DNA of 64,000 nt, taken from a virus. The stretch covers positions 35,176 to 99,175 of the IMG/VR virus record IMGVR_UViG_3300037504_000682; one strand, given 5' to 3'. Both the position numbers and the translations under genes were made by a program. Shown piece after piece: positions 23,105 to 42,189 of the stretch (the stretch's first letter is position 1; each line of letters begins with the position of its first letter). Under the pieces are notes generated by a model. It saw only the letters and a list, made by a program, of their open reading frames with translations. It ran no database searches and was not told where the DNA came from.

Positions 23105-23767
23105 ATGGCAGTTGAATTAGTTTACGGCGAGCGCAAAGAGCGCGAGACCAAAAAGGCGATCCTGGCCTGCAACGACTACTTGCGGATGGGACCCGGCCGG
23201 AGCTTACAGAAGCTACACGACCGTTACCAGGCCGTATCCGAACCGTTACCACCAACCAGGCGAATTACCACCTTAAAGCGTTGGTCAAAGGATTTTGAAT
23301 GGCAAAAACGGGCCGCTGATTACGAAGCCTATCTTGACCATCAAAAGACCGAAATGGCCGAGCGACGCCGGCGGCAGGCGATGGAGCAGGGCCTAGCCCT
23401 CGACTACGAGCGGGTCACCGTCCTGAAAAACCTGACCTCTCTGCTTCTGGGCGAGATGCTCAAAAAAGACCCGGCTACCGGCAAGTTGATCAACATCTGG
23501 CTCCAGGACGCCAAGCAGATCGGCTCCGGAATTGACGCCGAACGGGTCGACATCGAACACTTCAACGCCGCCATCATTCGGGAGCTGCGCGGCCTGCTGG
23601 ACGACCTGGCCAAAGAGACCGGCGGACGCAAGGAGAAACACGAATTCAGCGGACCGGGCGGCGGGCCGATCAAGACCGAAGACACCACGATGGACGACGA
23701 TGGTCGGGCCCGGCGGATCGTGGAACTACTGACCAAGGTCAAAGGGCGCGTGAGCGACGATGATTGA
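23105..23767 (+). CDS. terS: Terminase small subunit (putative)
   Basis: Directly upstream of TerL; TLKRWS...W..RA and HEFSGPGGGPI tail. Confidence 0.7.
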   Translation: MAVELVYGERKERETKKAILACNDYLRMGPGRSLQKLHDRYQAVSEPLPPTRRITTLKRWSKDFEWQKRAADYEAYLDHQKTEMAERRRRQAMEQGLALDYERVTVLKNLTSLLLGEMLKKDPATGKLINIWLQDAKQIGSGIDAERVDIEHFNAAIIRELRGLLDDLAKETGGRKEKHEFSGPGGGPIKTEDTTMDDDGRARRIVELLTKVKGRVSDDD

Positions 23768-25319
23768 CGAGTGGGAGGTCAGTCAGCTTCAGCAGCATAT
23801 GACCGGCCGGGAGCGGGCCTACCTGGAGGCCTTGCTTTCTGACGAGTTCATTTCGCTCTCGCAATACATCCAGGCCGCCTGGCCCGTGGTCGAGCCGGCC
23901 ACCGACTTCATCTCCAACTGGCATATCGACGCCATCAGCGACCACCTGGAGGCGGTCACCTGGGGCTGGATCAAAAACCTGATCATCAACATCCCCCCGC
24001 GCCATATGAAATCCCTGACCGTCTCTGTCTTCTGGCCGACCTGGGCCTGGACCTGGCGGCCGGAGCTGCGCTGGCTCTTTGCCTCCTACGCCGAGAAGCT
24101 GGCCATCCGGGATAACGTCAAGAGCCGGCGAGTGATCAAATCGCCCTGGTATCAGGCCCGCTGGGGCCACGTCTTTCGGCTGACCGGCGACCAGAACGAG
24201 AAGATGCGCTTTGAGAACGACCGCTCCGGCTACCGGATCGCCACCAGCGTAGGCGGCAGCGCCACCGGCGAGGGCGGCGACATCATCGTGGTCGACGACC
24301 CCCACAAGATGAAGGAGGTCGAGAGCGACCTGATCCGGGAGGGGGTCCTGGACTGGTGGGATGAGACGATGAGCACCCGCCTCAACGACCCCAAGAGCGG
24401 CAATAAGGTGATCCTGATGCAGCGGGGTCACGAACAGGACCTGACCGGCCACGTCCTGGAAAAGATGGAGCAAGGGGGCGAAAGCTACGAGCACCTGTGC
24501 CTGCCGGCCGAGTATGAGCCGACCACCTATGTGACGGCCATCGGCTTTGAAGACCCCCGCACTGAGCCGGGCGAGCTCTTGTGGCCGGATCACTTCGACC
24601 AGGAGGCCATCGACAACCTGAAGATTTCGCTTGGCTCCCGGGCGTCTGCCGCCCAGCTCCAGCAGCGGCCCAGCCCGGCCGAGGGCGACATCTTTAAGAA
24701 AAAATGGTGGCGCTTCTGGATTCCGCCCGGCTCCAACCTGCCGCCTTACCGGATCAAGCTGCCGGACGGCTCTCTCTTTGAGTGCGAGCAAAGGGAGTTG
24801 CCGGCGTTTTTCACCGAGCAGCTCCAGAGCTGGGATATGGCCTTCAAGGACACCAAGTCCAGCGCCTTTGTGGCCGGCCAGGTCTGGGCCCGGCTGGGGG
24901 CCGACAAGTTCCTGCTCGACCAAGAGCGAGATCGGTGGGACTTCCCGGCCACCCTGGCCGCCGTCCGCCGGGTGACCACCCGCCACCCGGCCGCTCACGC
25001 CAAGCTGGTCGAGGATAAGGCCAACGGGCCGGCCGTGATCCAGACCCTGCGCAGCAGTGTCGCCGGCCTAATCGCGGTCAATCCGGAGGGGGACAAAGTC
25101 TCCAGGGCCAACGCCGTGACCCCAGACATCGAGGCCGGCAACGTCTACCTACCCCACCCGGCCATCGCGCCCTGGGTCGACGGCCTGATCGACGAGTGCG
25201 CCTCTTTTCCTAACGGCGCTTTCAGCGACCAGGTCGACACCCTGAGCCAGGGGCTGGTCCGGCTGAAGAAAAACGAGCAGCGGGATCAGAAAAGCAGGCC
25301 CCGCTCCCACAGTTTGTAA
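23760..25319 (+). CDS. terL: Terminase large subunit
   Basis: INIPPRHMKS, VVDDPH, MQRGH, SWDMAFK, EDKANG, FPNG..DQVD. Confidence 0.95.
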   Translation: MIDEWEVSQLQQHMTGRERAYLEALLSDEFISLSQYIQAAWPVVEPATDFISNWHIDAISDHLEAVTWGWIKNLIINIPPRHMKSLTVSVFWPTWAWTWRPELRWLFASYAEKLAIRDNVKSRRVIKSPWYQARWGHVFRLTGDQNEKMRFENDRSGYRIATSVGGSATGEGGDIIVVDDPHKMKEVESDLIREGVLDWWDETMSTRLNDPKSGNKVILMQRGHEQDLTGHVLEKMEQGGESYEHLCLPAEYEPTTYVTAIGFEDPRTEPGELLWPDHFDQEAIDNLKISLGSRASAAQLQQRPSPAEGDIFKKKWWRFWIPPGSNLPPYRIKLPDGSLFECEQRELPAFFTEQLQSWDMAFKDTKSSAFVAGQVWARLGADKFLLDQERDRWDFPATLAAVRRVTTRHPAAHAKLVEDKANGPAVIQTLRSSVAGLIAVNPEGDKVSRANAVTPDIEAGNVYLPHPAIAPWVDGLIDECASFPNGAFSDQVDTLSQGLVRLKKNEQRDQKSRPRSHSL

Positions 25320-25326
25320 CGGACGT

Positions 25327-25536
25327 TTGAAAATGACCGACACACCCCAGGACATCGAAGCCGCGCAGCGCCGCATCCGGGAGCTGGAGGCCGCTCTTGA
25401 CCGGGAGGCCCGCTGGGCCGAGTTGTACCACGACCGCTGGCTTTTGTCCCACGACCGTGGGAACCATAGCATCGACTGGCAGGCGACCAACGACTACCGT
25501 CACCTGATCGGAGGAGAGAATGGCTACATTCGATGA
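25327..25536 (+). CDS. Hypothetical protein
   Basis: Small ORF between terL and portal. Confidence 0.5.
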   Translation: MKMTDTPQDIEAAQRRIRELEAALDREARWAELYHDRWLLSHDRGNHSIDWQATNDYRHLIGGENGYIR

Positions 25537-27106
25537 ACTGACCCTCAAGGACGCCGAGGAGCGTATTCCGGACCGGGGCGAGGATTGGCTAAAGGCCAAC
25601 CGGGCCTACTACCACGGCGACCACTGGCAGGATGGCGACGGCTGGTCCGGCCCGATGCTGGATATGAAACATAAGCTATATAGCCAGATGCTGCTCGAAA
25701 TCCAGCGAGCCTTCGTCTCCAAAAACACCATCGCCGAGGTGGCCGAGAGGCATAGCGCCGGGGTGATCGGCCGGGAGCCGCGCTGGCGGCTGACCGTCCG
25801 CCGGCCGCTGGCCGACGGCGAGGAGCCCACGGCCCAGGAGCAGACCTTGATCGACGAGGCCGAGATGCTGCTTAACGGCTGGTGGGAGGATCGGGGCTGC
25901 CATAAGGTGCTCAGGGAAGCGGCCGAGACGATGCTCCTGGCCAAGCGGGGCTCTCTCAGGCTCTTTGTGCCGCCGGGGCTCCTGGTCGACGGCTTGGTGC
26001 CCCGGGAGCCGGTCGAGGAGGCTATAGGCCGCATCTACCTGCACCATCCGGAGCCGGAGCAGGCGGCCGTGCCCCGGGACCGAAACACGATGCAGGACAT
26101 CGGCATCTACCTCTTTGAGCGCAACAATCAAAAGCTGGCCGAGCTGATCTACCTGGATGGCGACTGGACGGTGATCCGGCTGGCCGAAGCGACCAGCGAC
26201 GAAGGCGAGGAAGAAGAGCAGCCCGAGCCCTGGCGCTTCAACCTGGGTGGCCGGCTGACGATGTTTGAGATGAATCGCCGGCTGCTTATTACCGAGCAGG
26301 TCCGGCAAAACCAGAAGCTGCTTAACCTGGCGCTCACGATGCTTCAGCGCAACGTGATCCAGGGCGGCTTTCTGGAACGCACGTTTTTTAATGCCCAGCT
26401 GCCCGGCAAAGATATACCCGATCCGGACCGGCCGGGGGAAACCAAGTTCGTACCGGAGCCCCTGCACGTCGGGCCCGGGGCTACGAACTTCCTCTCCGGC
26501 GTGGTGACCGAAGACGATCAGGGTAACACAGTGGTGGCAACTCCTTCGGTGGTCTACCGGAACCCGGTGCCGGTAGAAACCTTTGCCGAGACCAAGCGGG
26601 AGGCCTACAGCTGCATCCTGGAGGAGGTTGACCAGCTGCACGTCCTGATCACCGGCGACGCCACGGCCAGCGGTGAGAGCCGCAAACAGGCCCAGACCGA
26701 CTTCCGGCAGTCCCTGCTGGACAGCAAGGATCAACTGGAGAAGGCCACCGCTTGGCTCCTGGAGACGGTACTGGCGATGGCGGCCGAATTCTCCGGCCAG
26801 GCCGGCCGGTACGAGGAGCTCCGGGTTGACGCCGAGTGCCGGGTCGACCTGGGTCCCATCTCGGGCGACGAGCAGCGGGTGGCCAGGGAGCTGGTCGAGG
26901 CTCAGATCATCTCGAAGCGAACGGCAATGAGCCGGGTGGGGGTGGACGACGCCGACGCCGAGGCCGGCCAGATCGCTACCGAGCAGGAGGAGAGCAGCCA
27001 AAGGCAGCAGCAGAGCCTGGCCACGGCCGTACTGAACGCCCAGCGGCAGCTGGCCGGCGGGCAGCAGTCGACCGGCCTGGAGCAGCCGGAGGGAGAGGAG
27101 GAGTAG
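25520..27106 (+). CDS. Portal protein
   Basis: 528 aa after terL; AYYHGDH, ASGES, IISKRTAM patterns of SPP1 gp6-like portals. Confidence 0.8.
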   Translation: MATFDELTLKDAEERIPDRGEDWLKANRAYYHGDHWQDGDGWSGPMLDMKHKLYSQMLLEIQRAFVSKNTIAEVAERHSAGVIGREPRWRLTVRRPLADGEEPTAQEQTLIDEAEMLLNGWWEDRGCHKVLREAAETMLLAKRGSLRLFVPPGLLVDGLVPREPVEEAIGRIYLHHPEPEQAAVPRDRNTMQDIGIYLFERNNQKLAELIYLDGDWTVIRLAEATSDEGEEEEQPEPWRFNLGGRLTMFEMNRRLLITEQVRQNQKLLNLALTMLQRNVIQGGFLERTFFNAQLPGKDIPDPDRPGETKFVPEPLHVGPGATNFLSGVVTEDDQGNTVVATPSVVYRNPVPVETFAETKREAYSCILEEVDQLHVLITGDATASGESRKQAQTDFRQSLLDSKDQLEKATAWLLETVLAMAAEFSGQAGRYEELRVDAECRVDLGPISGDEQRVARELVEAQIISKRTAMSRVGVDDADAEAGQIATEQEESSQRQQQSLATAVLNAQRQLAGGQQSTGLEQPEGEEE

Positions 27107-29227: not shown

Positions 29228-32200
29228 ATGCCGGATCCGCTAGTCGTTCAACTCGCTAACCAATTTCGGGAGCAGCTCGACGGCCGGGCCAATGAGGCCA
29301 TCGAGCAGATGGCCGGCGAGTGGCTCAAGGTCGAGGAGCGCCTGAAGGCTGACATCGAGCTTTTGGCCGCCGAACTGGCCGCCGCGCCCGGCGAGGTCAA
29401 GCTCAGCCCGATGACCGAGACGGTCAAGCTGATGCAGGAGGCCGGCTACGCGCCGGATTACATCCTCCAGCTCCTGGCCACCCAGGGCATTTTCGAGATA
29501 CCGGAGGTGCCCCAGCCCCAGGCCAAGCAACTCAAGGACTGGCAGCTGGCCCAGCTGCGGCGCTACGTCCGCCTCCTGGTCCAAGTGCAGGCCGAGATCG
29601 CCCGCTTCACCGGCCAGACGGCCGCCCCGATTATCGAGCAGCTCCAGGCCGACGCGGCCTATGAGGGTATTCAAAACGCCCTGACGATGATCGAAGCCTC
29701 GGTGTCAAGTGCCGGCGGCAGTACGGTCGATCTCGCCTTTGACCAGCTCAATACCGCCGCCGTGGAGAACATCGTGGCTATCGCCGGGGCCGGCCGGCCC
29801 CTGGGCGACCTGCTCCAGGCCGCTTATCCCCTGTCAGCCAACGGGATTACCAATGAGCTCGTCTACGGCACAGCCAAGGGCCAGAACCCGCGCAAAACAG
29901 CCCGGTCGATTATTGAAAATGGCCTGGCCCAGGGGCTCAACCATATGCTACTGGTGGCCAGAGACCAGCAGGTTAGAGCGGTCAGGGAGTCAGCCCGGCA
30001 GCAGTACGCCCGGGCCGGCATCGAGGGCTACCGCCGGCTGGCCGCCAAGCAGGCTCGCACCTGCCTGGCCTGCCTGGCCCTGGACGGCACCATCTGGCCC
30101 ACCTCGGAGCTGATGGCGCTTCATCCCCAAGATAGATGCTCGATGCTTCCGCTGGTGCCCGGCTTTGAGCCCGTTCAGTTTGAGACCGGCCCCGAGTGGT
30201 TCATGAAGCAGCCGGCTTCGGTCCAGAAGGAAATGATGGGCCCGGGCAAGTATGAGCTTTGGAAGGCCGGCGGCTTCGAGTTTGACCAGCTGGCCACGAT
30301 CAAGCCCAATCGCACCTGGGGGCCGAGCGCCCAGGTGACCACCCTCAAGGACCTGCAGCGCGGCCGGGGCGGATTCCGGCCGCCGGGCTCACCGACCCCG
30401 GCCCAACCCCGACCACCTACTGGACCGGTCGCCCCTGGCCCTTCTCCCCTGCCCGGCCTGGATCACGAGGCCCTGATGATCAAGGACCTGCACCAGCTGG
30501 GGCCGGATTGGGGCGAGCAGACCAACTGGAAAAACCAGAGCTACGGCGGAATCCTCTTTGACGACCAGGGTCGGGTGCTGCTGCGAAAGCCGACCGGCGA
30601 ATTCGGCGGCTACGCCTGGACTTTCCCCAAGGGCAAGATGAACAACTCCAAGGAGCACCCTGTCCAGACGGCCTTAATGGAAGTCGAGGAGGAGACCGGC
30701 CACGACGGCCAGATCATCGGCCTGGTGCCGGGCCAGTTCAAGGGAGACACCGGCCAGACCAACTTCTTCCTGATGAAATCCAACAGCTGGGACCGGTCGT
30801 TGATGGATGACGAGACCGAGCGGTTGGTCTGGGCTACGCCGGAGGAGGCCAAGAAGCTCATACGGCAGGGGGCCAACGAGAAGGGGGTCAAGCGGGACCT
30901 GGCCGTCCTGGAGGCGGCCACGAAGGCCCACGGCGACCTGCTGAGTGGGGAGGCGACCAACGACTACCTGTTCGACCAGAAGGGGCCGGTGGTGATCACC
31001 AACTTTAGTCAGCCACTCCTGGATCACATCGAAAAGCAGGCGGGGCAGATCAGCCACCAGAACAAAATGGAGCTACTTGTAACCAAGGCTGACATTGGTA
31101 AAAGCGGCACCAAGGGCATAGTAGTTCTGGATAGCGACGGGAGCCTGAAGGCTCTGGCCACTTATGATGACAAGTCCAGTGACTATGTATATGTTCATAA
31201 CGCCTGGGGCGATACAGTTACCAACGGAAAAACCCTGCTTATAAACTTGGGGCAGATAGCCGCTAAGGACGGCAGGGGTATTATCTTGACCCCCAAAGCA
31301 AGCAAGGTCAAACAATCCGCACCAAAAGTTGGATACAAGTCAACCGACGATGGCGGGCCGGTCACCCCGGGCTCGTTTTACCTTGAATCTGACTGGATGA
31401 AGGAATGGAAAAAGGCCCCGACCAAGTTCAAGCCGCCCAGTCCCCGGCCGCTTCCGCCTGAGCCCAAGGGGTACGACCGTAAGACCATCCCTCCAACTGA
31501 CGCCAAGCTAACGGGTGAGATAAAAGAGCTGGCCCAGGCGGACTTCGGCGATCCCCTGGCCTTGAAGGGAGCCCAGGTGGCGGCTGATAAAATCGCCGGC
31601 GGCCAGAAGGGGTTTATGTACGCCTCCGACACCGGCAAGCTGAAGGGGGTCATTTCTTACGAGGAGCAGGGTTCGATCATCAAGGTCGGCTCGGCCGGCT
31701 TCAGCGACTTCGAGACCAACCTGGCGGGCCTCCAGGACGTGGTGAAAATAGCCAAGCAAGCCGGCAAGGACTTCGTTACCTTCGCCCCGAAGGGCCCCAT
31801 CTTGGACCAGTACCTCAAATGGGGCTTTGAGGTCAACACCGCTTACGGCAACGGCGCTTCCCTAATTCTCAAGAAGCAGAACTTCGATGAGTGGCTGGGT
31901 GACCCGGCCAAATACGGCAAGGAGCACCGCTCCTCGCTGGAGCCCACCCCCTCCGGCAGCTACAGCCCGCCACCCCAGCCGACCAGCAGCGGTTACAAGG
32001 CCACGCCCCGGCCCCGGGACCCTGACCCCCTGCCGGATCCGGCTCCCCTGCCCGACCCTGACGATTTCCCGCCGGACCCGGCCGTGCTGACCGTCGTCCG
32101 TAAACTGGGTGGGTCGACCGGGGCCGAGCTGGTCGAGGACGTGGTCACCGGCCGGCGCTACGTCCGCAAGCGAGGCGGTAGCCCTGACCACATCCTGGAG

Positions 32201-33592
32201 GAGGTTCACGCCGATGCGGCCTACCAGGCGGCCGGGGCTAACGTGCCCCGCTTCAAGTTGTACGACACCCCCGCCGGCCCGGTCAAGTTGGCCGAGTTCA
32301 TCGAGGGCGAGGTGCTGGGCGACGTGCTAAAGAAGGGCGGGGCCCGGGCCAAGAAGGCAAGAGAGGCGATGAAGGAGAATTTTGGGGCCGACGCGCTGTT
32401 TGGCAATCGGGACGTGATAGGCGCGGACTACGACAACGTCCTGGTTGATAAGTCTGGCCGGGTCTGGCGCATCGACAATGGCGGGTCGTTCAGGTTCCGG
32501 GCAATGGGCGAGCGAAAGACCGACTGGGACGATTACCCTCTTGAGTTCTGGTCGATGCGAGACAAGCAATACAGGCAGGTTCACGATTTGTTTGGCGACC
32601 TGGACTTTTATTCCATCTCCGACCAGGTAATGGAGCTAAAGCGCCGGCGGGAGGCAATCCTGGCCGCCGTGCCGGAGGAGGTCCGGGACGTGCTGGATCG
32701 CCGGCTGCGAAACATCACGGATATGGCCACCACCGGCCAGGCGATGCAGGGCGATGATTTCCAGGTCGACTATGCCGACGGAATGAGCCGGCAGCGAATG
32801 GAGATGCGCAAGGGCGGGCTGACTGATCAGATGCCCCTGGCGATGGGGATTAAGGGATACGAGAAGGCCAGCGCCAAGAAGCGTTACAAAGGGGCTGTGA
32901 ATACCAGCGCGGTCTACGACGAACAGGGCCGACAGTTCGACCGGCTGCGGGGTGGGAACTCACTGATCGGCCAACTTAAGGGCTTTGTGAACAAGGCCGG
33001 CGGTAATTATGACCTGGTCGTCAAGTGGGCCAGCGAACAGGCCGGCAGTAGCTGGTCGCCGGCATCTCAGGCGCTGAAATACCACGTGGTCCAACAGATG
33101 AACAAGGCCGAAAAGCTGTTCTGGTGGCGAGATGGCAAATCAAAAGCCGAGAAGTATTATAAATCCATAGCCAGCGATAAGGCTGCCTATGATAAAACCT
33201 TCCAGGCCCTGCACGCCTTTACCCAGGAGATGTTGACCAGAATGGACCTGCCGAATAAGACAGAAAGAGATACAATCTTCTTGCTCAGATCGGAGGCGTC
33301 CAATATTTTGAGCAGGAACGGGATAAAACCGGGAGACACAGGGGCCACGATGCCCCGGGGGGCCATTGAGAGTACATCTGTTTTTGGAGGGGTGTACATC
33401 GGGGGCTCGGAGCTAACTCGACAAGAGGTCCCTTTGCATCGGATAATCGCGCCGTATTTTATGGAAAGGGTCCCAGGCAGCGGGGTAAGTATGTTCTACG
33501 GTGACAACGAAAATGAATTCGTGGTCATTCTCGGGGGCGACCTGCCATTCGACTACGTTGGCAGAAATAACGGGTCGGTTGTCATTGACTGA
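29228..33592 (+). CDS. MuF head morphogenesis protein fused to Nudix, GNAT-like, kinase-like and ART-like modules
   Basis: MuF RTCLACLALDG...HPQDRC; Nudix FPKG...EVEEETG; kinase LGGSTGA...YVRK...GNRD....DN...RIDNGG; C-term R...STS...ENE. Confidence 0.8.
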   Translation: MPDPLVVQLANQFREQLDGRANEAIEQMAGEWLKVEERLKADIELLAAELAAAPGEVKLSPMTETVKLMQEAGYAPDYILQLLATQGIFEIPEVPQPQAKQLKDWQLAQLRRYVRLLVQVQAEIARFTGQTAAPIIEQLQADAAYEGIQNALTMIEASVSSAGGSTVDLAFDQLNTAAVENIVAIAGAGRPLGDLLQAAYPLSANGITNELVYGTAKGQNPRKTARSIIENGLAQGLNHMLLVARDQQVRAVRESARQQYARAGIEGYRRLAAKQARTCLACLALDGTIWPTSELMALHPQDRCSMLPLVPGFEPVQFETGPEWFMKQPASVQKEMMGPGKYELWKAGGFEFDQLATIKPNRTWGPSAQVTTLKDLQRGRGGFRPPGSPTPAQPRPPTGPVAPGPSPLPGLDHEALMIKDLHQLGPDWGEQTNWKNQSYGGILFDDQGRVLLRKPTGEFGGYAWTFPKGKMNNSKEHPVQTALMEVEEETGHDGQIIGLVPGQFKGDTGQTNFFLMKSNSWDRSLMDDETERLVWATPEEAKKLIRQGANEKGVKRDLAVLEAATKAHGDLLSGEATNDYLFDQKGPVVITNFSQPLLDHIEKQAGQISHQNKMELLVTKADIGKSGTKGIVVLDSDGSLKALATYDDKSSDYVYVHNAWGDTVTNGKTLLINLGQIAAKDGRGIILTPKASKVKQSAPKVGYKSTDDGGPVTPGSFYLESDWMKEWKKAPTKFKPPSPRPLPPEPKGYDRKTIPPTDAKLTGEIKELAQADFGDPLALKGAQVAADKIAGGQKGFMYASDTGKLKGVISYEEQGSIIKVGSAGFSDFETNLAGLQDVVKIAKQAGKDFVTFAPKGPILDQYLKWGFEVNTAYGNGASLILKKQNFDEWLGDPAKYGKEHRSSLEPTPSGSYSPPPQPTSSGYKATPRPRDPDPLPDPAPLPDPDDFPPDPAVLTVVRKLGGSTGAELVEDVVTGRRYVRKRGGSPDHILEEVHADAAYQAAGANVPRFKLYDTPAGPVKLAEFIEGEVLGDVLKKGGARAKKAREAMKENFGADALFGNRDVIGADYDNVLVDKSGRVWRIDNGGSFRFRAMGERKTDWDDYPLEFWSMRDKQYRQVHDLFGDLDFYSISDQVMELKRRREAILAAVPEEVRDVLDRRLRNITDMATTGQAMQGDDFQVDYADGMSRQRMEMRKGGLTDQMPLAMGIKGYEKASAKKRYKGAVNTSAVYDEQGRQFDRLRGGNSLIGQLKGFVNKAGGNYDLVVKWASEQAGSSWSPASQALKYHVVQQMNKAEKLFWWRDGKSKAEKYYKSIASDKAAYDKTFQALHAFTQEMLTRMDLPNKTERDTIFLLRSEASNILSRNGIKPGDTGATMPRGAIESTSVFGGVYIGGSELTRQEVPLHRIIAPYFMERVPGSGVSMFYGDNENEFVVILGGDLPFDYVGRNNGSVVID

Positions 33593-33652
33593 GTTTGCAA
33601 CGCTCGTTACAAACTCGAAATCGCCGGCCGGCTGTGATATACTGAGGGTACG

Positions 33653-33973
33653 ATGAAAATCACCGATGCCAGATGGACCGAAGCCAGCAACGGCCTGCCG
33701 CTGCTGAAACTGAAAATCAACGGAGTAGAGGTCATCATCGACCCGGCCCAGAAAGCGATTTCTGAAGGAGTAGTGTTTTTGACGACGCCGCCCGAACATC
33801 TTGACCTGCTGCCGGAGATTACCATCCCGGGGGACAAGAGCGACAACCGGGGCTCGATCACCACCAACCAGGCCACAAGAGACAGGAGGATACTCAGGCT
33901 GACCAAGGAGTTCCTGGAGGCCGCCCAGAAGGACGATTTCGAGCCGGGGCCGGTGGCCCTGGAGGAAGAGTAA
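33653..33973 (+). CDS. Small acidic protein, candidate immunity protein for the MuF effector
   Basis: Directly downstream of MuF fusion; own TGaTATACT (-10 near 33635-33643); followed by terminator. Confidence 0.55.
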   Translation: MKITDARWTEASNGLPLLKLKINGVEVIIDPAQKAISEGVVFLTTPPEHLDLLPEITIPGDKSDNRGSITTNQATRDRRILRLTKEFLEAAQKDDFEPGPVALEEE

Positions 33974-34373: not shown

Positions 34374-34587
34374 CTATTCCCCACACGCGTGGGGGTGAAC
34401 CGAGAACCCGCTGCGGCCGGATGAGCAGGAATCAGCTATTCCCCACACGCGTGGGGGTGAACCGGGCCAGCAGCTGGCCGGGGCGGCCTGGGCCAAGCTA
34501 TTCCCCACACGCGTGGGGGTGAACCGGGGTCCCCGCTTTTGGCCAGTTCGGTCGCGAACTATTCCCTACATACGTGGGGGCGGCGGG
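34374..34587 (+). CRISPR. Type I-E-like mini CRISPR array: 3 identical repeats + 1 degenerate, 3 spacers, no cas genes in window
   Basis: CTATTCCCCACACGCGTGGGGGTGAACCG (29 nt) at 34374, 34436, 34498; degenerate copy at 34559; spacers 33, 33, 32 nt. Confidence 0.95.
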
Positions 34588-34630
34588 TTACACAACGAGA
34601 CTGGAAGTGTAACCGATACTTGGAGGGGAA

Positions 34631-35215
34631 ATGGCGGAAATCGGCGAGGAGAGACGTATCACAGAGCGCGATGTAATCCAGGTTCGCAAGAAGATCGACA
34701 CCGTCTTGCAAAAAGCCCTGGCGGGCTATGAAACCGACTTCAAGGATTCGGGCGGATATGTGAAGTGGGGCGAGGTTCAACAAGCGGTACATGAGGCGTT
34801 GGGTGATTTCTGGTCAAGGGCAGATCCGGAAATTTGGTTTGACGCAGCCCGGCCGACCATTGTTTGCCTTTGTGGGTCGACCAGGTTCTGGCGGGAATTC
34901 CAGCGGGCCAGCCTGCGCGAAACGATGGCCGGCAAAATCGTCCTGAGCATCGGGGCGGCCACCGGCACCGACGATGAACACTTCGGCAATCTTCCCCAAG
35001 AAGAGTATGACCGGATAAAGGTAGAGCTTGACGAGCTACACCTGAGAAAGATCGACCTGGCGGACGAGGTTCTGATCCTGAATGTCGACGGATACATCGG
35101 CGAGTCGACTGGTCGAGAGTTGGCCTACGCTAGGCGGGCCGGCAAGTTCGTGAGGTTTCTTGAGGATCATCCTGGGATTGGGGGAACGATAAAGGGGGAA
35201 AGGACTGACCAATGA
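34631..35215 (+). CDS. Nucleoside 2-deoxyribosyltransferase-like fold protein
   Basis: VCLCGSTRF...KIDLADEVLILNVDGYIGEST..E..YA. Confidence 0.6.
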   Translation: MAEIGEERRITERDVIQVRKKIDTVLQKALAGYETDFKDSGGYVKWGEVQQAVHEALGDFWSRADPEIWFDAARPTIVCLCGSTRFWREFQRASLRETMAGKIVLSIGAATGTDDEHFGNLPQEEYDRIKVELDELHLRKIDLADEVLILNVDGYIGESTGRELAYARRAGKFVRFLEDHPGIGGTIKGERTDQ

Positions 35216-35568
35216 ACAACGAAGAACCAACCACCTGGGCCATAATCGAACTTATGGGCCATCAAAAAATAGCCGGCCGCTACAGCGAGCGCGGGGCCAT
35301 GCACCGCGTCGACGTCCCCGGCGATGGGGATGAATTTAGATTCACCCGGCTTTACTCGCCCCAGGCCATCTACTCGATCACCTTCGTTGACGAGCAAGCG
35401 GCCCGGATGGCGGCCAGGGCGCTGGAGGTGCAGCCGATCACGATCTGGGAGGTCAACCAGGAAATTCGCCGGCTGGCAGCTCCGGCTGAATCAGGCGACG
35501 TGCTGGATGAGTACGTCGAGCACGAAGACTACGACTACGACGACGATTATGAGGGAGTGCCGTTTTAG
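35212..35568 (+). CDS. Conserved phage hypothetical protein
   Basis: WAIIELMGH..IAG...RVDVP...AIYSIT. Confidence 0.7.
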   Translation: MNNEEPTTWAIIELMGHQKIAGRYSERGAMHRVDVPGDGDEFRFTRLYSPQAIYSITFVDEQAARMAARALEVQPITIWEVNQEIRRLAAPAESGDVLDEYVEHEDYDYDDDYEGVPF

Positions 35569-35630
35569 TGGACAAAGGTGCCACGGTCGTTTTCGGTCCA
35601 ATATTGAAAGACCAGGAAGGCTCATACCCA

Positions 35631-36176
35631 ATGAAGCTAATCGTAATCCCCAGGGAAAAGACTATCATCGAAGTACCCGACGAAGTCCGGCCGGCGCTCT
35701 GCCTCGACCTGGACGGCACGGTCCGCTACAGCAAAAACGGCGAATTCATCAACCGGCCGGAGGACATCGACCTCTTCGATGGCGTCGAGGAGAAAATCTG
35801 GCAGTACCGAGACGACGGCTATCTGATCTTCGGGATCACCAACCAGGGCGGGGTCGCCTTCGGCTACAAAACCCCGGCCGGCTGCGAGGCTGAGATCGAG
35901 GCCACTTGCAACCTATTTGAGCGCAACCCGTTTCACATCATCAAATCCAGCTACCACCATCCCAAGGGGACGGTCGAGCCGTACAACTACCGGTCGCTGC
36001 TGCGGAAGCCGGACATCGGGATGCTGGCCCTGTGCGAGGTCGACGCCTGGCAGGCCGGCTATGTGGTCGACTGGGACCGGAGCCTCTTTGTGGGTGACCG
36101 GCCGGAGGACCAGGAGTGTGCCGAGTGGGCCGGGATCGAGTTCCGGTGGGCCGGTGAGTTTTTCGGGAGGGAGTGA
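35631..36176 (+). CDS. HAD-IIIA phosphatase (GmhB/polynucleotide 3'-phosphatase-like)
   Basis: DLDGT, ITNQGG, RKP..GM, FVGDR.ED. Confidence 0.85.
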   Translation: MKLIVIPREKTIIEVPDEVRPALCLDLDGTVRYSKNGEFINRPEDIDLFDGVEEKIWQYRDDGYLIFGITNQGGVAFGYKTPAGCEAEIEATCNLFERNPFHIIKSSYHHPKGTVEPYNYRSLLRKPDIGMLALCEVDAWQAGYVVDWDRSLFVGDRPEDQECAEWAGIEFRWAGEFFGRE

Positions 36177-37340: not shown

Positions 37341-37717
37341 CCACCCTCAAGCCCTACATCGCCTACCCTGAGCATTACGGTCCTCACCACGCCGCCGCTC
37401 TGGTCCTGGCCACCTCCGTCAGGGAGGCCAAACGGTTGGCCTGGCGGCGCAGCTGGTTGCCGGACGAGTGCGACGGCTGGACCGATCTGGCCGTCCGGCT
37501 GTTTCGGCCTGCGGACCGCGCCCTGCCATTGGCCGACCAGGATAAGCTGGCCGCCGGCATCCCTCACGTGGTCGAAAGCCCGGCCTACTGCCAGTCCTGT
37601 GAGCAGTGGGGCTGCGGGGTGACTGAGGACGGCCGGTGCTGTCATTGTAATGAGTATCCCGGCGATGAGTTAGTGGGGTTGTTTGGTGGACAGAAAGAAG
37701 AAGCAGGAGATGCATGA
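37337..37717 (+). CDS. Hypothetical protein with C-terminal Zn-finger-like Cys
   Basis: CQSC...CCHC. Confidence 0.6.
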   Translation: MTTLKPYIAYPEHYGPHHAAALVLATSVREAKRLAWRRSWLPDECDGWTDLAVRLFRPADRALPLADQDKLAAGIPHVVESPAYCQSCEQWGCGVTEDGRCCHCNEYPGDELVGLFGGQKEEAGDA

Positions 37718-38885
37718 GCTGGCTTTATTTGCCGGAGCAGGAGGCGGGCTCCTCGCCACAAAGTGGCTCCTTGGCTGGGAGACCGTCTGCTACGTCGAAA
37801 AAGAAGAATATCCGGTCAGGATCATCAAGGCACGGATCAGGGACGGACTCCTTGATGACGCCCCGATCTGGTCCGATGTCCGGTCGTTCACCAAGCGAAA
37901 CAATCAGGCACGGCCGTTCATCCGCCAACTGCGGGCGATACGCGGCTCTCTGGTTGTCACGGCGGGTTTCCCCTGTCAACCGTTCAGCCTGGCGGGAAAA
38001 TCCAGAGCCGAGGCAGACGAGCGGAACGGTTGGCCGGATACCGTTCGCATTATTAGAGAAATCCGGCCGGCGTGGGTTTTTCTGGAGAATGTACCAGGAC
38101 TCCTTGCCGGGTCTCACGGATACTATGGCACGATTCTCCAAGAGTTGGCCCAGAGCGGGTATGATGCTCGATGGCGTGTGTTATCTGCGGCCGAGATGGG
38201 AGCGCCGCATCAGCGAGACAGGCTCTGGATTGTGGCCCACGCCCAGGAACAACACCGGGCCGTCGATGGACCGAAAGCATCTCAGCCTCGACGGGGCGGT
38301 GAGGCTATGGCCGACTCCAGTCTATTCGGATCATTCCGATCGAGCACCCGGCCGGCCGCACCTGACCAAAAACGGCACAATCAGGCACGTCAACAAGGCG
38401 GGGCAACAGAGTTTTATGAGGCTGTCCCAGGTGGTCAAACTCTGGCCCACACCGACCGTCAACGGCAACCACAACAGGGCTGGTCTGAGCAAAAAGAGCG
38501 GGGACGGGTTGGCTACGGCCGTCAAGCGGTGGGCGACCCCGAGTGCCAGGGACTGGCGATCAGGCAAGGCGTCAGAGGAAACACACCAGCGCAACGCCCG
38601 GCCGCTATCGGAGCAGGTGATCAGGGCGGAGAAATTCAGGGCGCCAACACAGACCGACGCCACGAAATGGAACAACGCGTCGGTTCAGGAGAGACGGGCA
38701 AAAGGGCGAAGCGTTCGTTTACCCAACCAGGTTGCCCCGGGCCGTGGTGGGCAACTGAACCCGATGTGGGTCGAGTGGCTGATGGGGTGGCCTCTCGGGT
38801 GGACCGACTCAAGGCCCTTGGGAACGGGCAGGTTCCTGACGTGGCTGCGCTCGCGTGGGTTGAATTAACAAAGGATTTATTATGA
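37710..38885 (+). CDS. DNA cytosine-5 methyltransferase, alpha-type chain
   Basis: LFAGAGG (I), GFPCQ (IV), ENV (VI), HQRDR (VIII), LKALGNG (X); region between VIII and X looks non-conserved. Confidence 0.9.
   Translation: MHELALFAGAGGGLLATKWLLGWETVCYVEKEEYPVRIIKARIRDGLLDDAPIWSDVRSFTKRNNQARPFIRQLRAIRGSLVVTAGFPCQPFSLAGKSRAEADERNGWPDTVRIIREIRPAWVFLENVPGLLAGSHGYYGTILQELAQSGYDARWRVLSAAEMGAPHQRDRLWIVAHAQEQHRAVDGPKASQPRRGGEAMADSSLFGSFRSSTRPAAPDQKRHNQARQQGGATEFYEAVPGGQTLAHTDRQRQPQQGWSEQKERGRVGYGRQAVGDPECQGLAIRQGVRGNTPAQRPAAIGAGDQGGEIQGANTDRRHEMEQRVGSGETGKRAKRSFTQPGCPGPWWATEPDVGRVADGVASRVDRLKALGNGQVPDVAALAWVELTKDLL
37714..38868 (+). CDS. Overlapping +1-frame partner (beta-type chain: WPTP repeats + motif IX)
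   Basis: 384 aa open frame with several (L)WPTP repeats and LNPMWVEWLMGWPLGWT. Confidence 0.7.
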   Translation: MSWLYLPEQEAGSSPQSGSLAGRPSATSKKKNIRSGSSRHGSGTDSLMTPRSGPMSGRSPSETIRHGRSSANCGRYAALWLSRRVSPVNRSAWRENPEPRQTSGTVGRIPFALLEKSGRRGFFWRMYQDSLPGLTDTMARFSKSWPRAGMMLDGVCYLRPRWERRISETGSGLWPTPRNNTGPSMDRKHLSLDGAVRLWPTPVYSDHSDRAPGRPHLTKNGTIRHVNKAGQQSFMRLSQVVKLWPTPTVNGNHNRAGLSKKSGDGLATAVKRWATPSARDWRSGKASEETHQRNARPLSEQVIRAEKFRAPTQTDATKWNNASVQERRAKGRSVRLPNQVAPGRGGQLNPMWVEWLMGWPLGWTDSRPLGTGRFLTWLRSRGLN

Positions 38886-39187
38886 CAGTAACCGTATCGC
38901 TCAACAGGGATTACAAAATCTTCCCTATCGGCGGCAATATGCCCGGCCGGGAATGGGTCGACTTTTGGCCGACCTTCATCCCCCTCAAGTCCACTCAGGG
39001 TATCTGGGGTGAAATGTCGGAGCCGCCCCGGGATGGAGACGTTATCGCCGCCGATATGGAGTCCGGCCGGCGGGCCTTGTTTGTCGTTCACGGTATGAGA
39101 AGCCTTGATCCGCCCGACTTTTTTTGTGAAGCCTCATTTGTCGGCTACGAGGACGATAACGAGCTGCCGGAATCGGAGGCCAAATGA
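38882..39187 (+). CDS. Hypothetical protein
   Basis: Coupled ORF. Confidence 0.55.
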   Translation: MTVTVSLNRDYKIFPIGGNMPGREWVDFWPTFIPLKSTQGIWGEMSEPPRDGDVIAADMESGRRALFVVHGMRSLDPPDFFCEASFVGYEDDNELPESEAK

Positions 39188-40146
39188 GTCACCTCCCCGC
39201 CCCCCGCACGTCCACCCCGGCCGCTCTCCAGACCGTCATCACCCTATGGGCCGACCACGTCACCGACCCGGCCAGCCCCCGCCGGCGGGACCTGCTGCGG
39301 GACAAGACCAAGGCCGCGCTCGACTTCTTCGAGTTCGCCGGCCGGCCCCCGGCCGCCGTTGGCCCGGTCGAGGTCAAGAATTGGCAGGCCGAACTTGAGG
39401 CCCAGGGGCTGGCCACGTCCACGATCTACGCCAAGATCAGCCGGGTGTCATCGTTCTATAACTGGGCCATCGAGGCCGGCCACGTGGAGCGCAACCCGGT
39501 CGATGAGGCCCGGCCCCGGGCTCCCCGGCCCTACCAGAGCGAGAGCACCCAGTCCCTGAGCGACGACGACGTGGCCCGGCTGCTGGAGGTGGTCCGGGAG
39601 CGAGACGACCTGGTGGGCCGGCGGGATTACGCGATGCTCACCTTGTACTTCTTCTCCGGCAAGCGCCGGCGGGAGATCGTGCAGCTGCGGGCCGGGGACG
39701 TGCGGATCAAGGGAGAGAAGCTGATCATCCGTTCCCAGGTCAAGGGCGGCGACTACGAAGCCTTTGAGGTCGACAACCCTCTGGCCGTCGAGGCCCTCGC
39801 CGCCTATCTGGCCCGGCGGGGTGTCAGCCTGGCCGACCTGGCCGAGGATGCGCCGCTGTGGGTAGTCAGCCGCAAGGCCGGCAAGTATGCCGGTCGAGCC
39901 ATCAGTAGCCACGGTTTCGTGGCCAATTTGAAGCGGTACGCCAGGGCCGCCGGCCTGGGCGACATCCACCTGCACCAGACCCGGCACACGTTTGCGAGGT
40001 GGGTGGGCGAGGAGAGCGGCAGCCTCCAGGAGGCCCAGGCAGCGCTGGGGCATAGGAACGTGGGGACTACCCGGGTGTATCTGCCCCGGGTGGCGGTGAA
40101 GAAGGATCATTATAGCCAGAAGATTAGCGAAAGGTTGGGATTGTGA
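39184..40146 (+). CDS. Second tyrosine recombinase (Xer/Cre-like)
   Basis: RDYAML...SGKRRREI, VKGG, HQTRH, LGH, TTRVY. Confidence 0.9.
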   Translation: MSHLPAPRTSTPAALQTVITLWADHVTDPASPRRRDLLRDKTKAALDFFEFAGRPPAAVGPVEVKNWQAELEAQGLATSTIYAKISRVSSFYNWAIEAGHVERNPVDEARPRAPRPYQSESTQSLSDDDVARLLEVVRERDDLVGRRDYAMLTLYFFSGKRRREIVQLRAGDVRIKGEKLIIRSQVKGGDYEAFEVDNPLAVEALAAYLARRGVSLADLAEDAPLWVVSRKAGKYAGRAISSHGFVANLKRYARAAGLGDIHLHQTRHTFARWVGEESGSLQEAQAALGHRNVGTTRVYLPRVAVKKDHYSQKISERLGL

Positions 40147-40403
40147 CTACCGACTACACCAACGGCAACTGGCACGCGGCCACCCTGGGCGAATTCGTGT
40201 CTCTGTTGATTGATAGCGGCGGCGATCCGGCGGTTATTTTTCGGGTGGTAGAAGATGAACCAAGTAAAGACGGCGCGTTCGTCAGGCACCTGGAAGTGAT
40301 GATGCTACCGCAGGGGCGGGTAAAAGAGAAGATCAACCAGGTCAAGCCGGAATCGATCCACAACACGCTGGTAGACCTGATTAAGGCAGGGGTGGTGAAA
40401 TGA
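40143..40403 (+). CDS. Hypothetical protein
   Basis: Coupled ORF. Confidence 0.5.
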   Translation: MTTDYTNGNWHAATLGEFVSLLIDSGGDPAVIFRVVEDEPSKDGAFVRHLEVMMLPQGRVKEKINQVKPESIHNTLVDLIKAGVVK

Positions 40404-41008
40404 AACAAATCGGCATTACCGGCGCTCTGGTTCTACTCATCGCCTTATCTTGCAGCATCTTCTCCGTTCGGATCGGCTCTTCGGTCGGCCGGTCAATCGA
40501 GACCGCCGCCCACCAGCGGGCCGCAGACCGGTCCCAGGCCCGGCAGGAGCGGGACCAGTGGCACCGGCTGGCCATGGAGGAGGCCCGGCAGACAGCGTCG
40601 TACCGGATCGCAGCCAAGCGAGCCACCTGGTACTGGCTGTCCATTTTCGGCATCGGCTCCGGCGCAACCATCATGGTGACCGGGGTTTTATCGGTGGCCT
40701 GGTGGATGATCGGCCGCAGCCGGGCCGCAGTGGAGCGGTCTCGCAGAGAAGCGCGGTTGATTCCGGTCGATCCGGAGACGCGCCAGTTCCCACTGTTCGT
40801 TTACGAGCTGGCCGGCGCTCCCCGCATATACAACCCAAACACCGGCAGCGTGGTGACCCTGGAGGCGGGCCGGGACGAGATACCGATGCTGATCACCGGC
40901 TCATCGGCCACCCAGTTGGCCGGGGCGATTGCCCAGCAGGCGGCTAAAGCCCAGGACGCCGGCAGTGTGGCGATGATAAGCCCGCCGCTGGTGGTGGAGG
41001 ACAAATGA
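40400..41008 (+). CDS. Membrane protein
   Basis: Two hydrophobic segments. Confidence 0.6.
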   Translation: MKQIGITGALVLLIALSCSIFSVRIGSSVGRSIETAAHQRAADRSQARQERDQWHRLAMEEARQTASYRIAAKRATWYWLSIFGIGSGATIMVTGVLSVAWWMIGRSRAAVERSRREARLIPVDPETRQFPLFVYELAGAPRIYNPNTGSVVTLEAGRDEIPMLITGSSATQLAGAIAQQAAKAQDAGSVAMISPPLVVEDK

Positions 41009-42189
41009 GACTGACCCAACAACCCCTCTTTGGCGACCGGCTCACCCTGATCGAAGCTATCGGCCTGACCGTCGAGTCACTCCAGGCCTACGGCTCCGAC
41101 TACCACCACTGGGTCCTGGCCTTCAGCGGCGGCAAGGATTCAACCGTGGTCGTCTCCCTTCTGGCCTGGCTCATCGAGCAGGGCCACATCGAGCCCCCAC
41201 CGGCCGGGATCACCGTCCTGATGAGCGACACCCGCCAGGAGTTCCTGCCGCTGCACCTGGCCGCCCTGGAGACGCTGAAGGTCGCCCAATCCTGCGGCTT
41301 CAGGGCCCGGGTAGTCCAGCCGCCGTTCGATCATCGGATGTACGTTTATATGCTCGGCCGGGGCGTCCCGCCGGCCAGCAACGTCTTTCGCTGGTGTACC
41401 CGGATACTCAAGGCCGACCCGATGGCCCGGGCCATTGAGGCCCTGGCCGAAACAAACGGCCAGGTGCTGGTCTTGACCGGTGTCCGGCAGGGCGAGAGCG
41501 CGGCCCGGGATCAACGGATCGCTCTCTCGTGCAGCCGGGACGGTGGCGAGTGTGGGCAGGGGTGGTTTCAGAACGCCAGCCGGGACGGGGTGGCCAGCAC
41601 CCTGGCCCCGCTGCTGCACTGGCGATTGTGCCACATCGAGGACTGGCTGCGCTTCTACGCCCCAGAGATCGGCCTGGACAGCCGGCCCATAATCGACATT
41701 TACGGCTTTGAGGAAGACGAGCAGATGAACCTCCGGACCGGCTGCGCCGGCTGTATGCTCATCGAGGAGGACCGGGCCCTGGCCAGGATCGTGCAGCTGC
41801 CGGGGTGGGGCTACCTGGCCCCATTGCAAAGGCTCAAGGCGGTGTATCGGGAGCTGAAGCGGCCCCAGAACCGGCTCAGGAAGTGGGGCGAACGTAAGAA
41901 GGACGGCTCGCTCGGGGCCAAGCAGGGCCGACTGGGCCCGCTTACGATGGAGGCGCGGCGCTGGGGACTGGAGCAGGTGCTGGCCATCCAGGAGGAGATA
42001 AACGGCGCGGCCCGGGTGCTGGGGCGGCCGGAGCTACACCTGATCACCGATGCCGAGCGGGAGAGGGTGCTGGAGCTGATCGAGGCCAACACGTGGCCCA
42101 GGGGCTGGACAGGAGAGGAGCCCCGGGGTGATGAGTTGGTGGATAAGATTGTGGCCGAGGGGGTGACCCTGCCGGTGTTGATTTCTTAG
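41005..42189 (+). CDS. PAPS-reductase-family (DndC-like) protein
   Basis: AFSGGKDS PP-loop, RWCT..LK..P, GVRQGESAARD, RTGCAGC, GPLT.EAR. Confidence 0.8.
   Translation: MRLTQQPLFGDRLTLIEAIGLTVESLQAYGSDYHHWVLAFSGGKDSTVVVSLLAWLIEQGHIEPPPAGITVLMSDTRQEFLPLHLAALETLKVAQSCGFRARVVQPPFDHRMYVYMLGRGVPPASNVFRWCTRILKADPMARAIEALAETNGQVLVLTGVRQGESAARDQRIALSCSRDGGECGQGWFQNASRDGVASTLAPLLHWRLCHIEDWLRFYAPEIGLDSRPIIDIYGFEEDEQMNLRTGCAGCMLIEEDRALARIVQLPGWGYLAPLQRLKAVYRELKRPQNRLRKWGERKKDGSLGAKQGRLGPLTMEARRWGLEQVLAIQEEINGAARVLGRPELHLITDAERERVLELIEANTWPRGWTGEEPRGDELVDKIVAEGVTLPVLIS

Follow-up and report, generated by a model that had tools for sequence, protein, structure and literature searches.

A giant MuF-domain protein of a putatively temperate tailed phage combines Nudix, GNAT-fold and kinase-fold domains with a divergent ADP-ribosyltransferase-like domain

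The 64,000-nucleotide stretch of viral DNA analysed here (the window) covers positions 35,176 to 99,175 of IMG/VR virus record IMGVR_UViG_3300037504_000682 and carries, at 29228-33592, an uninterrupted open reading frame (ORF) that encodes a polyvalent MuF protein of 1454 residues (P0001; ORF list and translation). In this protein a head-morphogenesis domain is followed by a Nudix domain, a pair of GNAT-fold domains, a kinase-fold domain and a C-terminal ADP-ribosyltransferase (ART)-like domain of the R-S-E type. The source record is 99,175 bp long, is estimated to be about 96% complete and contains one copy of the gene. The gene, its domains and the terminase, portal and 106-residue genes named below are all on the plus strand. 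The gene lies in the packaging module, next to the terminase and a probable portal: the large terminase (TerL; 23760-25319; phrog_38, E = 6.9e-94) is followed by the probable portal (25520-27106), three small genes and the 1454-residue MuF gene. The portal is named from its position after TerL and a weak match to Pfam SPP1_portal (E = 0.0063, below the cut-off), and the candidate has no PHROG match. The phage is temperate by gene content, because an integrase is encoded downstream of the MuF gene (39184-40146). A first-pass annotation, made from the sequence alone, had named MuF, Nudix, GNAT-like, kinase-like and ART-like domains in this protein, and each of these calls is now backed by profile, fold or motif evidence.

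Residues 106-364 (29543-30319) form the MuF, or SPP1 gp7-like, head-morphogenesis domain, which matches the PHROG head-morphogenesis families phrog_241 (E = 3.8e-16), phrog_595 and phrog_115, in agreement with the first reading. Annotated MuF or minor head (minor capsid) proteins were matched by tblastn in 34 phage records, and PF04233 is present in the close relative P0151 according to a precomputed domain table. Beyond this domain the chain is divided by three proline-rich linkers, identified by direct reading and proline counts at residues ~383-410 (30374-30457), ~731-760 (31418-31507) and ~905-952 (31940-32083), so that the Pro linkers claimed earlier are indeed present.

The Nudix hydrolase domain (residues 438-545; 30539-30862) matches Pfam PF00293 above its cut-off (E = 7.4e-10; 39.4 bits against 21.1), and its closest solved structures are Ap4A hydrolase (PDB 3i7u, E = 8.8e-6) and MutT-type enzymes. 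Its box reads ALMEVEEETG, with Met484 where Arg is expected, a replacement that had been noticed at the outset and is real; the Glu residues E485, E488 and E489 are kept, and one residue more than usual separates G from E. With Met484 and the longer spacing, the window protein does not contain the full Nudix box GX5EX7REUXEEXGU. All seven close relatives have Arg at the position of Met484 (ALREVEQE), and the more distant Nudix members of Pseudomonas phage Jeremy, Morganella phage Mecenats66 and protein P0002 have Lys there; judging from these sequences, the Arg-to-Met change is private to this phage. The window's Nudix subfamily also occurs as stand-alone genes in Mecenats66 (L004:4185-4925; 40% identity to the window Nudix, E = 7e-16) and Jeremy (L001:5954-6799; 31% identity, E = 2e-7), in both cases two genes downstream of a giant kinase-ART protein. 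The Jeremy gene carries the annotation 'nucleotide phosphatase'. Nudix chemistry cuts the pyrophosphate of ADP-ribose, which leaves phosphoribose on the protein, or degrades free ADP-ribose or NAD; in either case the mark stays. It is macro, ARH and NADAR domains that take ADP-ribose off proteins (PMC9503650). The role of eraser once suggested for the Nudix domain was thus overstated, the more so as the box Arg is also lost here, and because the mark would not be taken off the domain is better called a pyrophosphate-bond enzyme acting on ADP-ribose or NAD.

The middle region (residues 575-925) was found in seven relatives only, at 45-52% identity and always together with the Nudix domain, and nothing in Pfam, NCBIfam or PHROG matched residues 575-1454. 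Its AlphaFold model, with a predicted local distance difference test (pLDDT) score of 80, contains two α/β domains. The second of these (residues 745-890; 31460-31897; pLDDT >90) is a GNAT-fold domain by structural comparison: the best match in the wide VIA-align search is 3gya (Z 12.3, root-mean-square deviation 2.9, 133 residues aligned), further matches include 4lua (Z 12.1) and the tRNA-acetylating toxins AtaT (6gtp) and TacT3 (6g96), both at 11.9, and 50 of the 50 matches listed are GNATs. The first (residues 588-730; 30989-31417), recognised from the secondary structure of the model (pLDDT 75-87) and low in G+C (GC) content, is a divergent duplicate of the second (hhalign Prob 78%, P 1.9e-5, reversed control P 0.26; BLASTP E = 1e-3) and is assigned to the GNATs by that homology only. 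The two degenerate GNAT-like segments proposed earlier are therefore recovered, one by fold and the other by homology. By eye on the alignment, the canonical acetyl-CoA loop Q/RxxGxG/A after strand 4 is absent from domain 2, where the stretch reads GSAGFSDFETNLAGL and is conserved in the relatives, and none is visible in domain 1 either; QYLKWGF in domain 2 resembles GNAT motif B. Since the loop is missing, acetyltransferase activity is doubtful, and we speak of GNAT-fold domains rather than of acetyltransferases. In two of the seven close relatives, P0155 and P0156 (1174 and 1182 residues), the precomputed table lists the Pfam intein-splicing domain PF14890, which suggests an intein within the MuF polyvalent protein of those two.

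The C-terminal 530 residues (925-1454) were modelled by AlphaFold2 (AF2) at pLDDT 88 with a predicted template modelling score (pTM) of 0.87. No Pro-rich linker separates the kinase and ART halves, the three linkers parting the other domains, and according to the model the two halves form one rigid, tightly packed unit of about 520 residues. The kinase half (residues 943-1173; 32054-32746) has the bilobal fold of an atypical protein kinase, as judged from the AF2 model, structure matches and conserved catalytic residues. In VIA-align, residues 17-250 of the model match CtkA (3akj; Z 13.1, 201 residues aligned), CotH (Z 12.3), PI4KIIα (4pla; Z 12.1, 210 residues aligned, 20% identity), Rio1 (Z 11.7), HipA (Z 11.4) and actin-fragmin kinase (Z 11.3), and the 500 matches listed by Foldseek against PDB for the model of the whole unit are all kinases. 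Some of the matches in BFVD are labelled by UniProt as PI3K/PI4K domain proteins. The motifs GGSTG, VRK, GNRD..DN and IDNG can be read in the sequence, and over 109 sequences the Gly-loop GGSTGA, K981, E992, D1062, N1070 and D1083 each show at least 90% conservation. Structure prediction and motifs together bear out the HipA/PI3-4-kinase-like domain that had been read from the sequence. The catalytic roles follow from analogy to known motifs and from where the residues lie in the model, rather than from a residue-by-residue superposition; on our own reading, the layout GNxD...DN...IDNG parallels the GDRHxxN...DFG of PI3/4-kinases. That the Gly-rich loop, the β3 Lys, the αC Glu, the catalytic Asp/Asn and the metal-binding Asp are all conserved speaks for catalysis and for ATP bound in the usual orientation.

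The ART half opens with a helical stretch (residues 1174-1344; 32747-33259), a bridge or else the N-terminal portion of the ART-like domain, in which QAGSSWS is nearly invariant. This stretch is supported by the helices of the model and by conservation, and hhalign pairs it with the helical region marked by YTGSxY in VIP2-like ARTs. It is followed by the R-S-E core (residues 1345-1447; 33260-33568) with R1354, S1382-T-S1384 and E1428-N-E1430. R1354, S1382/S1384 and E1428/E1430 are invariant in 23 homologues and at least 90% conserved in 109, and in the model the motifs lie on predicted strands in the order of ARTs, strand(R)-helix-strand(STS)...strand(ExE). The family profile aligns in hhalign to 10 Pfam-type VIP2-like ARTs of phage virion proteins over 150-177 columns and keeps the three motifs in register (P 1.4e-4 in local and 1.3e-5 in global mode; Prob 52-59%), against P 0.03-0.5 for controls with a reversed profile and the kinase profile, and the motif spacing is 28/46 residues here and 27/44 in the phage VIP2-like ARTs. 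In the language-model Atlas the nearest clusters of this part are PF03496 (score 0.90), which is a lead only. The R...STS...ENE pattern, described at first reading as typical of R-S-E ARTs, is thus conserved and in register with VIP2-like enzymes, and we hold with considerable confidence that the C-terminal domain is an ART, an assignment based on motifs, spacing, secondary structure and profile-profile alignment and not on a structure match.

Our survey of relatives indicates that the kinase-ART unit is abundant. A HMMER search with residues 575-1454 returned 2970 cluster representatives at E <= 1e-3, including 610 at E <= 1e-30. Among the matches listed, all 149 other proteins align to the C-terminal unit, nearly always over residues ~925-1446, and with few exceptions the aligned part reaches to within a few dozen residues of the protein's C-terminus. 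These proteins span 440-3416 residues, and some forms of about 500 residues barely exceed the unit and have no MuF domain. Pfam scans of 63 homologues found MuF N-terminal to the unit in 40, Nudix in three and InPase in one, together with one weak APH match (E = 0.0068) and no PI3/4-kinase or ART family. IMG/VR contains 141 loci of the family, at most of which the kinase domain is followed by an ART of the window type. At L057 and L059 the kinase domain stands directly before a Pfam ADPrib_exo_Tox domain (E = 1.8e-20 in L057), and at L074, L079 and L086 before an ART-like domain of yet another type (Prob 94% and P 1.6e-7 in hhalign); on this comparison, one kinase domain precedes at least three ART subfamilies. 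A portal fusion occurs at L079 and another among the BFVD matches, and the protein at L082 runs from ART-PolyVal through MuF, Nudix and kinase to a tail. Such a tail, of about 540 residues after the kinase, is found at seven loci (L054:7083-10262, L058:7095-10295, L060:7146-10295, L062:7002-10310, L072:6309-10376, L082:5772-10400 and L085:4320-10487); in the L054 group it has no Pfam match and no relation to ARTs in hhalign against ART profiles (P 0.25-0.41), and its invariant residues include G.T.T..R.R.G...Y.FTRI...NET.

Among cultured phages, the giant proteins of Jeremy (annotated 'ADP-ribosyltransferase') and Mecenats66 (unannotated) have a homologous kinase domain (profile E = 1e-38; 30% identity in Jeremy) and end in a Pfam-type ART. 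A protein of Yersinia phage fHe-Yen8-01 with a Jeremy-type ART end, likened to them by that end only, carries the GenBank note 'phage particle associated protein'. As the Nudix domain is fused to the protein here and encoded by a neighbouring gene in Mecenats66 and Jeremy, both the kinase-ART pairing and its link with Nudix recur across distant phages.

The suggestion that the protein was assembled by module shuffling holds in part. The unit is found behind many N-termini, the middle region is confined to seven relatives, and the GC content is uneven along the gene, at 0.49 in 31050-31349 (GNAT-fold domain 1) and 0.51-0.53 in 33000-33599 (the ART part) against 0.61 for the window, so that the drop reported near 31050-31340 and 32850-33590 is real. 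This unevenness agrees with a mosaic origin and proves nothing by itself. What does not stand is the picture of kinase and ART as separate beads: because they make up one conserved, tightly packed unit of about 520 residues, and because the kinase is repeatedly paired with ART-type C-termini, the two would not have been shuffled independently.

Directly downstream of the MuF gene, a 106-residue ORF (33653-33973) encodes a candidate partner or immunity protein. Its family lies directly 3' of the module gene at nine other IMG/VR loci (L009:9493-9816, L013:9491-9784, L018:9461-9784, L024:9494-9820, L032:9501-9809, L041:9944-10312, L045:9878-10240, L055:9839-10189 and L056:9842-10186) and is weakly conserved, about 100-120 residues long and placed after genes that end in the kinase-ART unit; loci with the other C-terminal tail (L054, L058, L060, L062 and L082) have a different conserved small downstream ORF. 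The ORF at 33653-33973 has no Pfam, PHROG or Atlas match. Such a pattern is expected of toxin-immunity pairs and could also reflect phage lineage. About 400 bp further downstream is a CRISPR-like array (34374-34594), in which a 29-nt repeat, CTATTCCCCACACGCGTGGGGGTGAACCG, occurs four times with a spacing of 61-62 bp; no cas genes were seen nearby. Some 10 kb of non-structural genes (35568-36176 and 37714-42189) lie between the MuF gene and the next late-operon ORFs, which start at about 44089 and among which no capsid family was identified. Encoded in this stretch are a DNA methyltransferase, the tyrosine integrase, a PAPS-reductase/DndC-like protein (phrog_12882, E = 2.8e-135) and a protein with a PNK3P-type polynucleotide 3'-phosphatase domain (E = 6.5e-10).

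The domain folds and motifs, the head-gene context and a conserved C-terminal unit that is repeatedly fused to MuF or portal lead us to propose that the temperate tailed phage probably packages the 1454-residue protein into its virions and injects it as a multi-enzyme effector; its packaging, its ejection, all of its enzyme activities and its targets are predictions. The MuF part would anchor the protein to the portal inside the capsid, and the ~1050 residues left over would serve as cargo, delivered to the host by ejection together with the DNA. The three Pro-rich linkers would set apart the four units of this cargo: the Nudix unit as a pyrophosphohydrolase, the tandem GNAT-fold pair, possibly as binding modules rather than acetyltransferases, and then, as a single compact unit, a PI4K/CtkA/HipA-like atypical kinase packed against an R-S-E (Alt/VIP2-like) ART. 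Early in infection the kinase-ART unit may phosphorylate and ADP-ribosylate host proteins, in the manner of T7 Gp0.7 and T4 Alt, so that the cell is taken over or disarmed. The Nudix unit might work on the same NAD/ADP-ribose chemistry, degrading free ADP-ribose, NAD or signal nucleotides or trimming protein-bound ADP-ribose to phosphoribose. The head context and the MuF fusion fit the published prediction of packaging and injection for MuF, Nudix and Alt/VIP2-type ART fusions (PMC5512222, PMC9503650, PMC5576092), and T4 Alt and the T7 kinase are cited as functional precedents (PMC9503650, PMC5512222).

Several results weigh against this proposal. The MuF match falls below the curated cut-offs of both Pfam (Phage_Mu_F, PF04233; E = 7.7e-4, 20.6 bits, cut-off 29.6) and TIGRFAM (TIGR01641; E = 2e-7, 31.3 bits, cut-off 39.65), Met484 may weaken Nudix catalysis, and neither GNAT-fold domain has, as far as its sequence can tell, a recognisable acetyl-CoA loop. 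The Pfam and NCBIfam kinase families (PI3_PI4_kinase, HipA_C, Pkinase) gave no match for the window protein, and the ART part has no Pfam PF03496, NCBIfam or PDB sequence or profile match: a PDB sequence search with a 23-sequence profile of the kinase-ART unit yielded two chance-level matches only, and a tblastn search of 50,697 phage records with the ART-like part found nothing better than E = 6. Among the matches listed, the Foldseek PDB, wide VIA-align and BFVD searches with the 530-residue model gave kinase-domain matches only. Finally, the pairing of kinase and ART is frequent and not universal, since seven loci carry the non-ART tail.

The small downstream ORF brings in a different account, in which the protein is a MuF polymorphic toxin (Jamet et al. 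2017) whose kinase-ART unit would inhibit growth, serving the lysogen or the phage either against competitors or in the lysis-lysogeny decision, and ORF 33653-33973 would be its immunity protein. The temperate gene content agrees with it, as does the variation of the domain after the conserved kinase, of which there are at least four types, and the conserved ORF of about 100 residues 3' of the gene at nine other loci is replaced by other small-ORF families where the C-terminal type is different; moreover, 89% of MuF toxin genes precede a small gene, and the EFV MuF-ART is toxic in yeast (PMC5576092). However, the ORF is not detectably related to any immunity family and may be the next head gene of the lineage, the co-variation of the small ORFs could track phage lineage as well as toxin type, and such toxins usually have one toxin domain, not four enzyme-like units. 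We consider this account rather unlikely, and it overlaps with that of an injected effector, as delivery would still be via the capsid. It is very improbable that the protein is a structural or assembly component, with its long C-terminal extension serving mainly as filler or scaffold inside the capsid and its enzyme-like domains having lost their function. MuF proteins are assembly factors and some catalytic motifs are imperfect (Nudix Met484, the GNAT loops), but the catalytic residues of kinase and ART are strongly conserved in the family, whose cluster representatives number 610 at E < 1e-30, and stand-alone forms of about 500 residues exist without MuF.

The relation between the two halves of the unit can also be seen in other ways. 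The kinase fold might be a nucleotide-binding regulatory or targeting domain, or might perform another chemistry like SelO or SidJ, and steer the ART, with the Nudix and GNAT-fold domains as degenerate binding modules. The tight packing of the two halves (pTM 0.87, no linker), the constancy of the kinase domain beside changing ART-type tails, the lost Nudix box Arg, the missing acetyl-CoA loops and the lack of a Pfam kinase family would all suit such a role, which we nevertheless judge quite unlikely, given that a complete canonical catalytic set is at least 90% conserved over the 109 sequences and that relatives of the Nudix domain keep Arg or Lys plus all Glu residues. Distinctly unlikely, too, is an obligate two-step modification machine formed by kinase fold and ART and possibly extended by the linked Nudix. 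ARTs of the Tpt1/KptA type act on phosphates, and in a comparable way the kinase could add a phosphate, which would next receive an ADP-ribose cap from the ART; alternatively, the ART could write ADP-ribose and the Nudix trim it to a phosphoribosyl mark beyond the reach of the host's macrodomain and ARH erasers. Such a machine would explain why a single kinase domain precedes at least three ART subfamilies and why the Nudix of one subfamily is fused or adjacent to it, and, if real, it would represent a so far undescribed chemistry, delivered by the phage, for modifying proteins or nucleic acids.

Giant MuF or polyvalent effector proteins are already known as a kind, and the injected effector proposed here belongs among them. 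In polyvalent proteins, many effector-type domains from a repertoire that includes ARTs, kinases, GNATs and Nudix-linked domains are attached to MuF or portal within one chain, which is predicted to be injected with the DNA (PMC5512222). The window protein resembles them in having at least two effector-type domains and a virion domain in one ORF (MuF, Nudix, two GNAT-fold, kinase and ART-like domains) and differs in that its ART-like domain is R-S-E; the finding corrects the statement that genuine polyvalent proteins have no R-S-E ARTs. The kinases of polyvalent proteins are reported to form a family, found mainly in Verrucomicrobia, Chlamydia and Bacteroidetes, from which the C-terminal subdomain is missing altogether (PMC5512222), whereas the fold of the window kinase aligns through the C-lobe to PI4KIIα and CtkA, a distinction drawn from the description only. 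With CtkA of H. pylori, PI4KIIα, HipA, actin-fragmin kinase, Rio and CotH it has the fold in common (Z 11-13), at a sequence identity of only 10-20%. MuF-fused ARTs of the Alt/VIP2 family and MuF- or portal-fused Nudix domains are predicted to be packaged (Iyer et al. 2022, PMC9503650), and like them the window protein has an R-S-E ART on a head protein encoded beside terminase and portal; unlike them, its ART is too divergent for Pfam PF03496 and is preceded by an integral kinase-fold domain. T4 Alt, the experimental prototype, has been shown by experiment to be packaged and is not fused to MuF. Neither PMC9503650 nor the further full-text literature searched for phage kinase-ART fusions mentions the kinase-ART pairing.

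With the MuF polymorphic toxins, including the EFV MuF-ART of Enterococcus faecalis, the protein shares the MuF N-terminus, a variable C-terminal domain of toxin type, a temperate phage and a small downstream gene, but it is much larger and has several enzyme-like units, and their family is mainly from Firmicutes (PMC5576092). Ct_MAD was ruled out as the identity of the unit, being the C-terminal region of COG2369 (Jamet et al., PMC5576092). The giant 'ADP-ribosyltransferase' proteins of Pseudomonas phages Jeremy and Dolphis, Yersinia phage fHe-Yen8-01 and Morganella phage Mecenats66 have the C-terminal R-S-E ART in common with it. In Jeremy and Mecenats66 a homologous kinase-fold domain is followed some 280 residues on by an R-S-E ART which, unlike that of the window, is recognisable to Pfam as ADPrib_exo_Tox; the Jeremy protein has no MuF by Pfam. 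These giant proteins contain no GNAT-fold pair, and their Nudix is a separate gene. As far as the literature was searched, the fixed unit of kinase and ART appears to be new, as do its abundance, the absence of any curated model for it (Pfam has none) and its recurrent link with Nudix.

Head-packaged effectors are how many phages act on the cell before phage gene expression. To our knowledge, few of them have been studied by experiment, examples being T4 Alt, the Dar proteins of P1 and the vRNAP of N4. The window offers a clean example of a large uncharacterised family in which a complete-looking kinase is joined to an R-S-E ART, and relatives in cultured Pseudomonas, Yersinia and Morganella phages bring that family within experimental reach. 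If both enzymes are active, the unit would allow the coupling of phosphorylation with ADP-ribosylation to be studied in the takeover of the host or in counter-defence.

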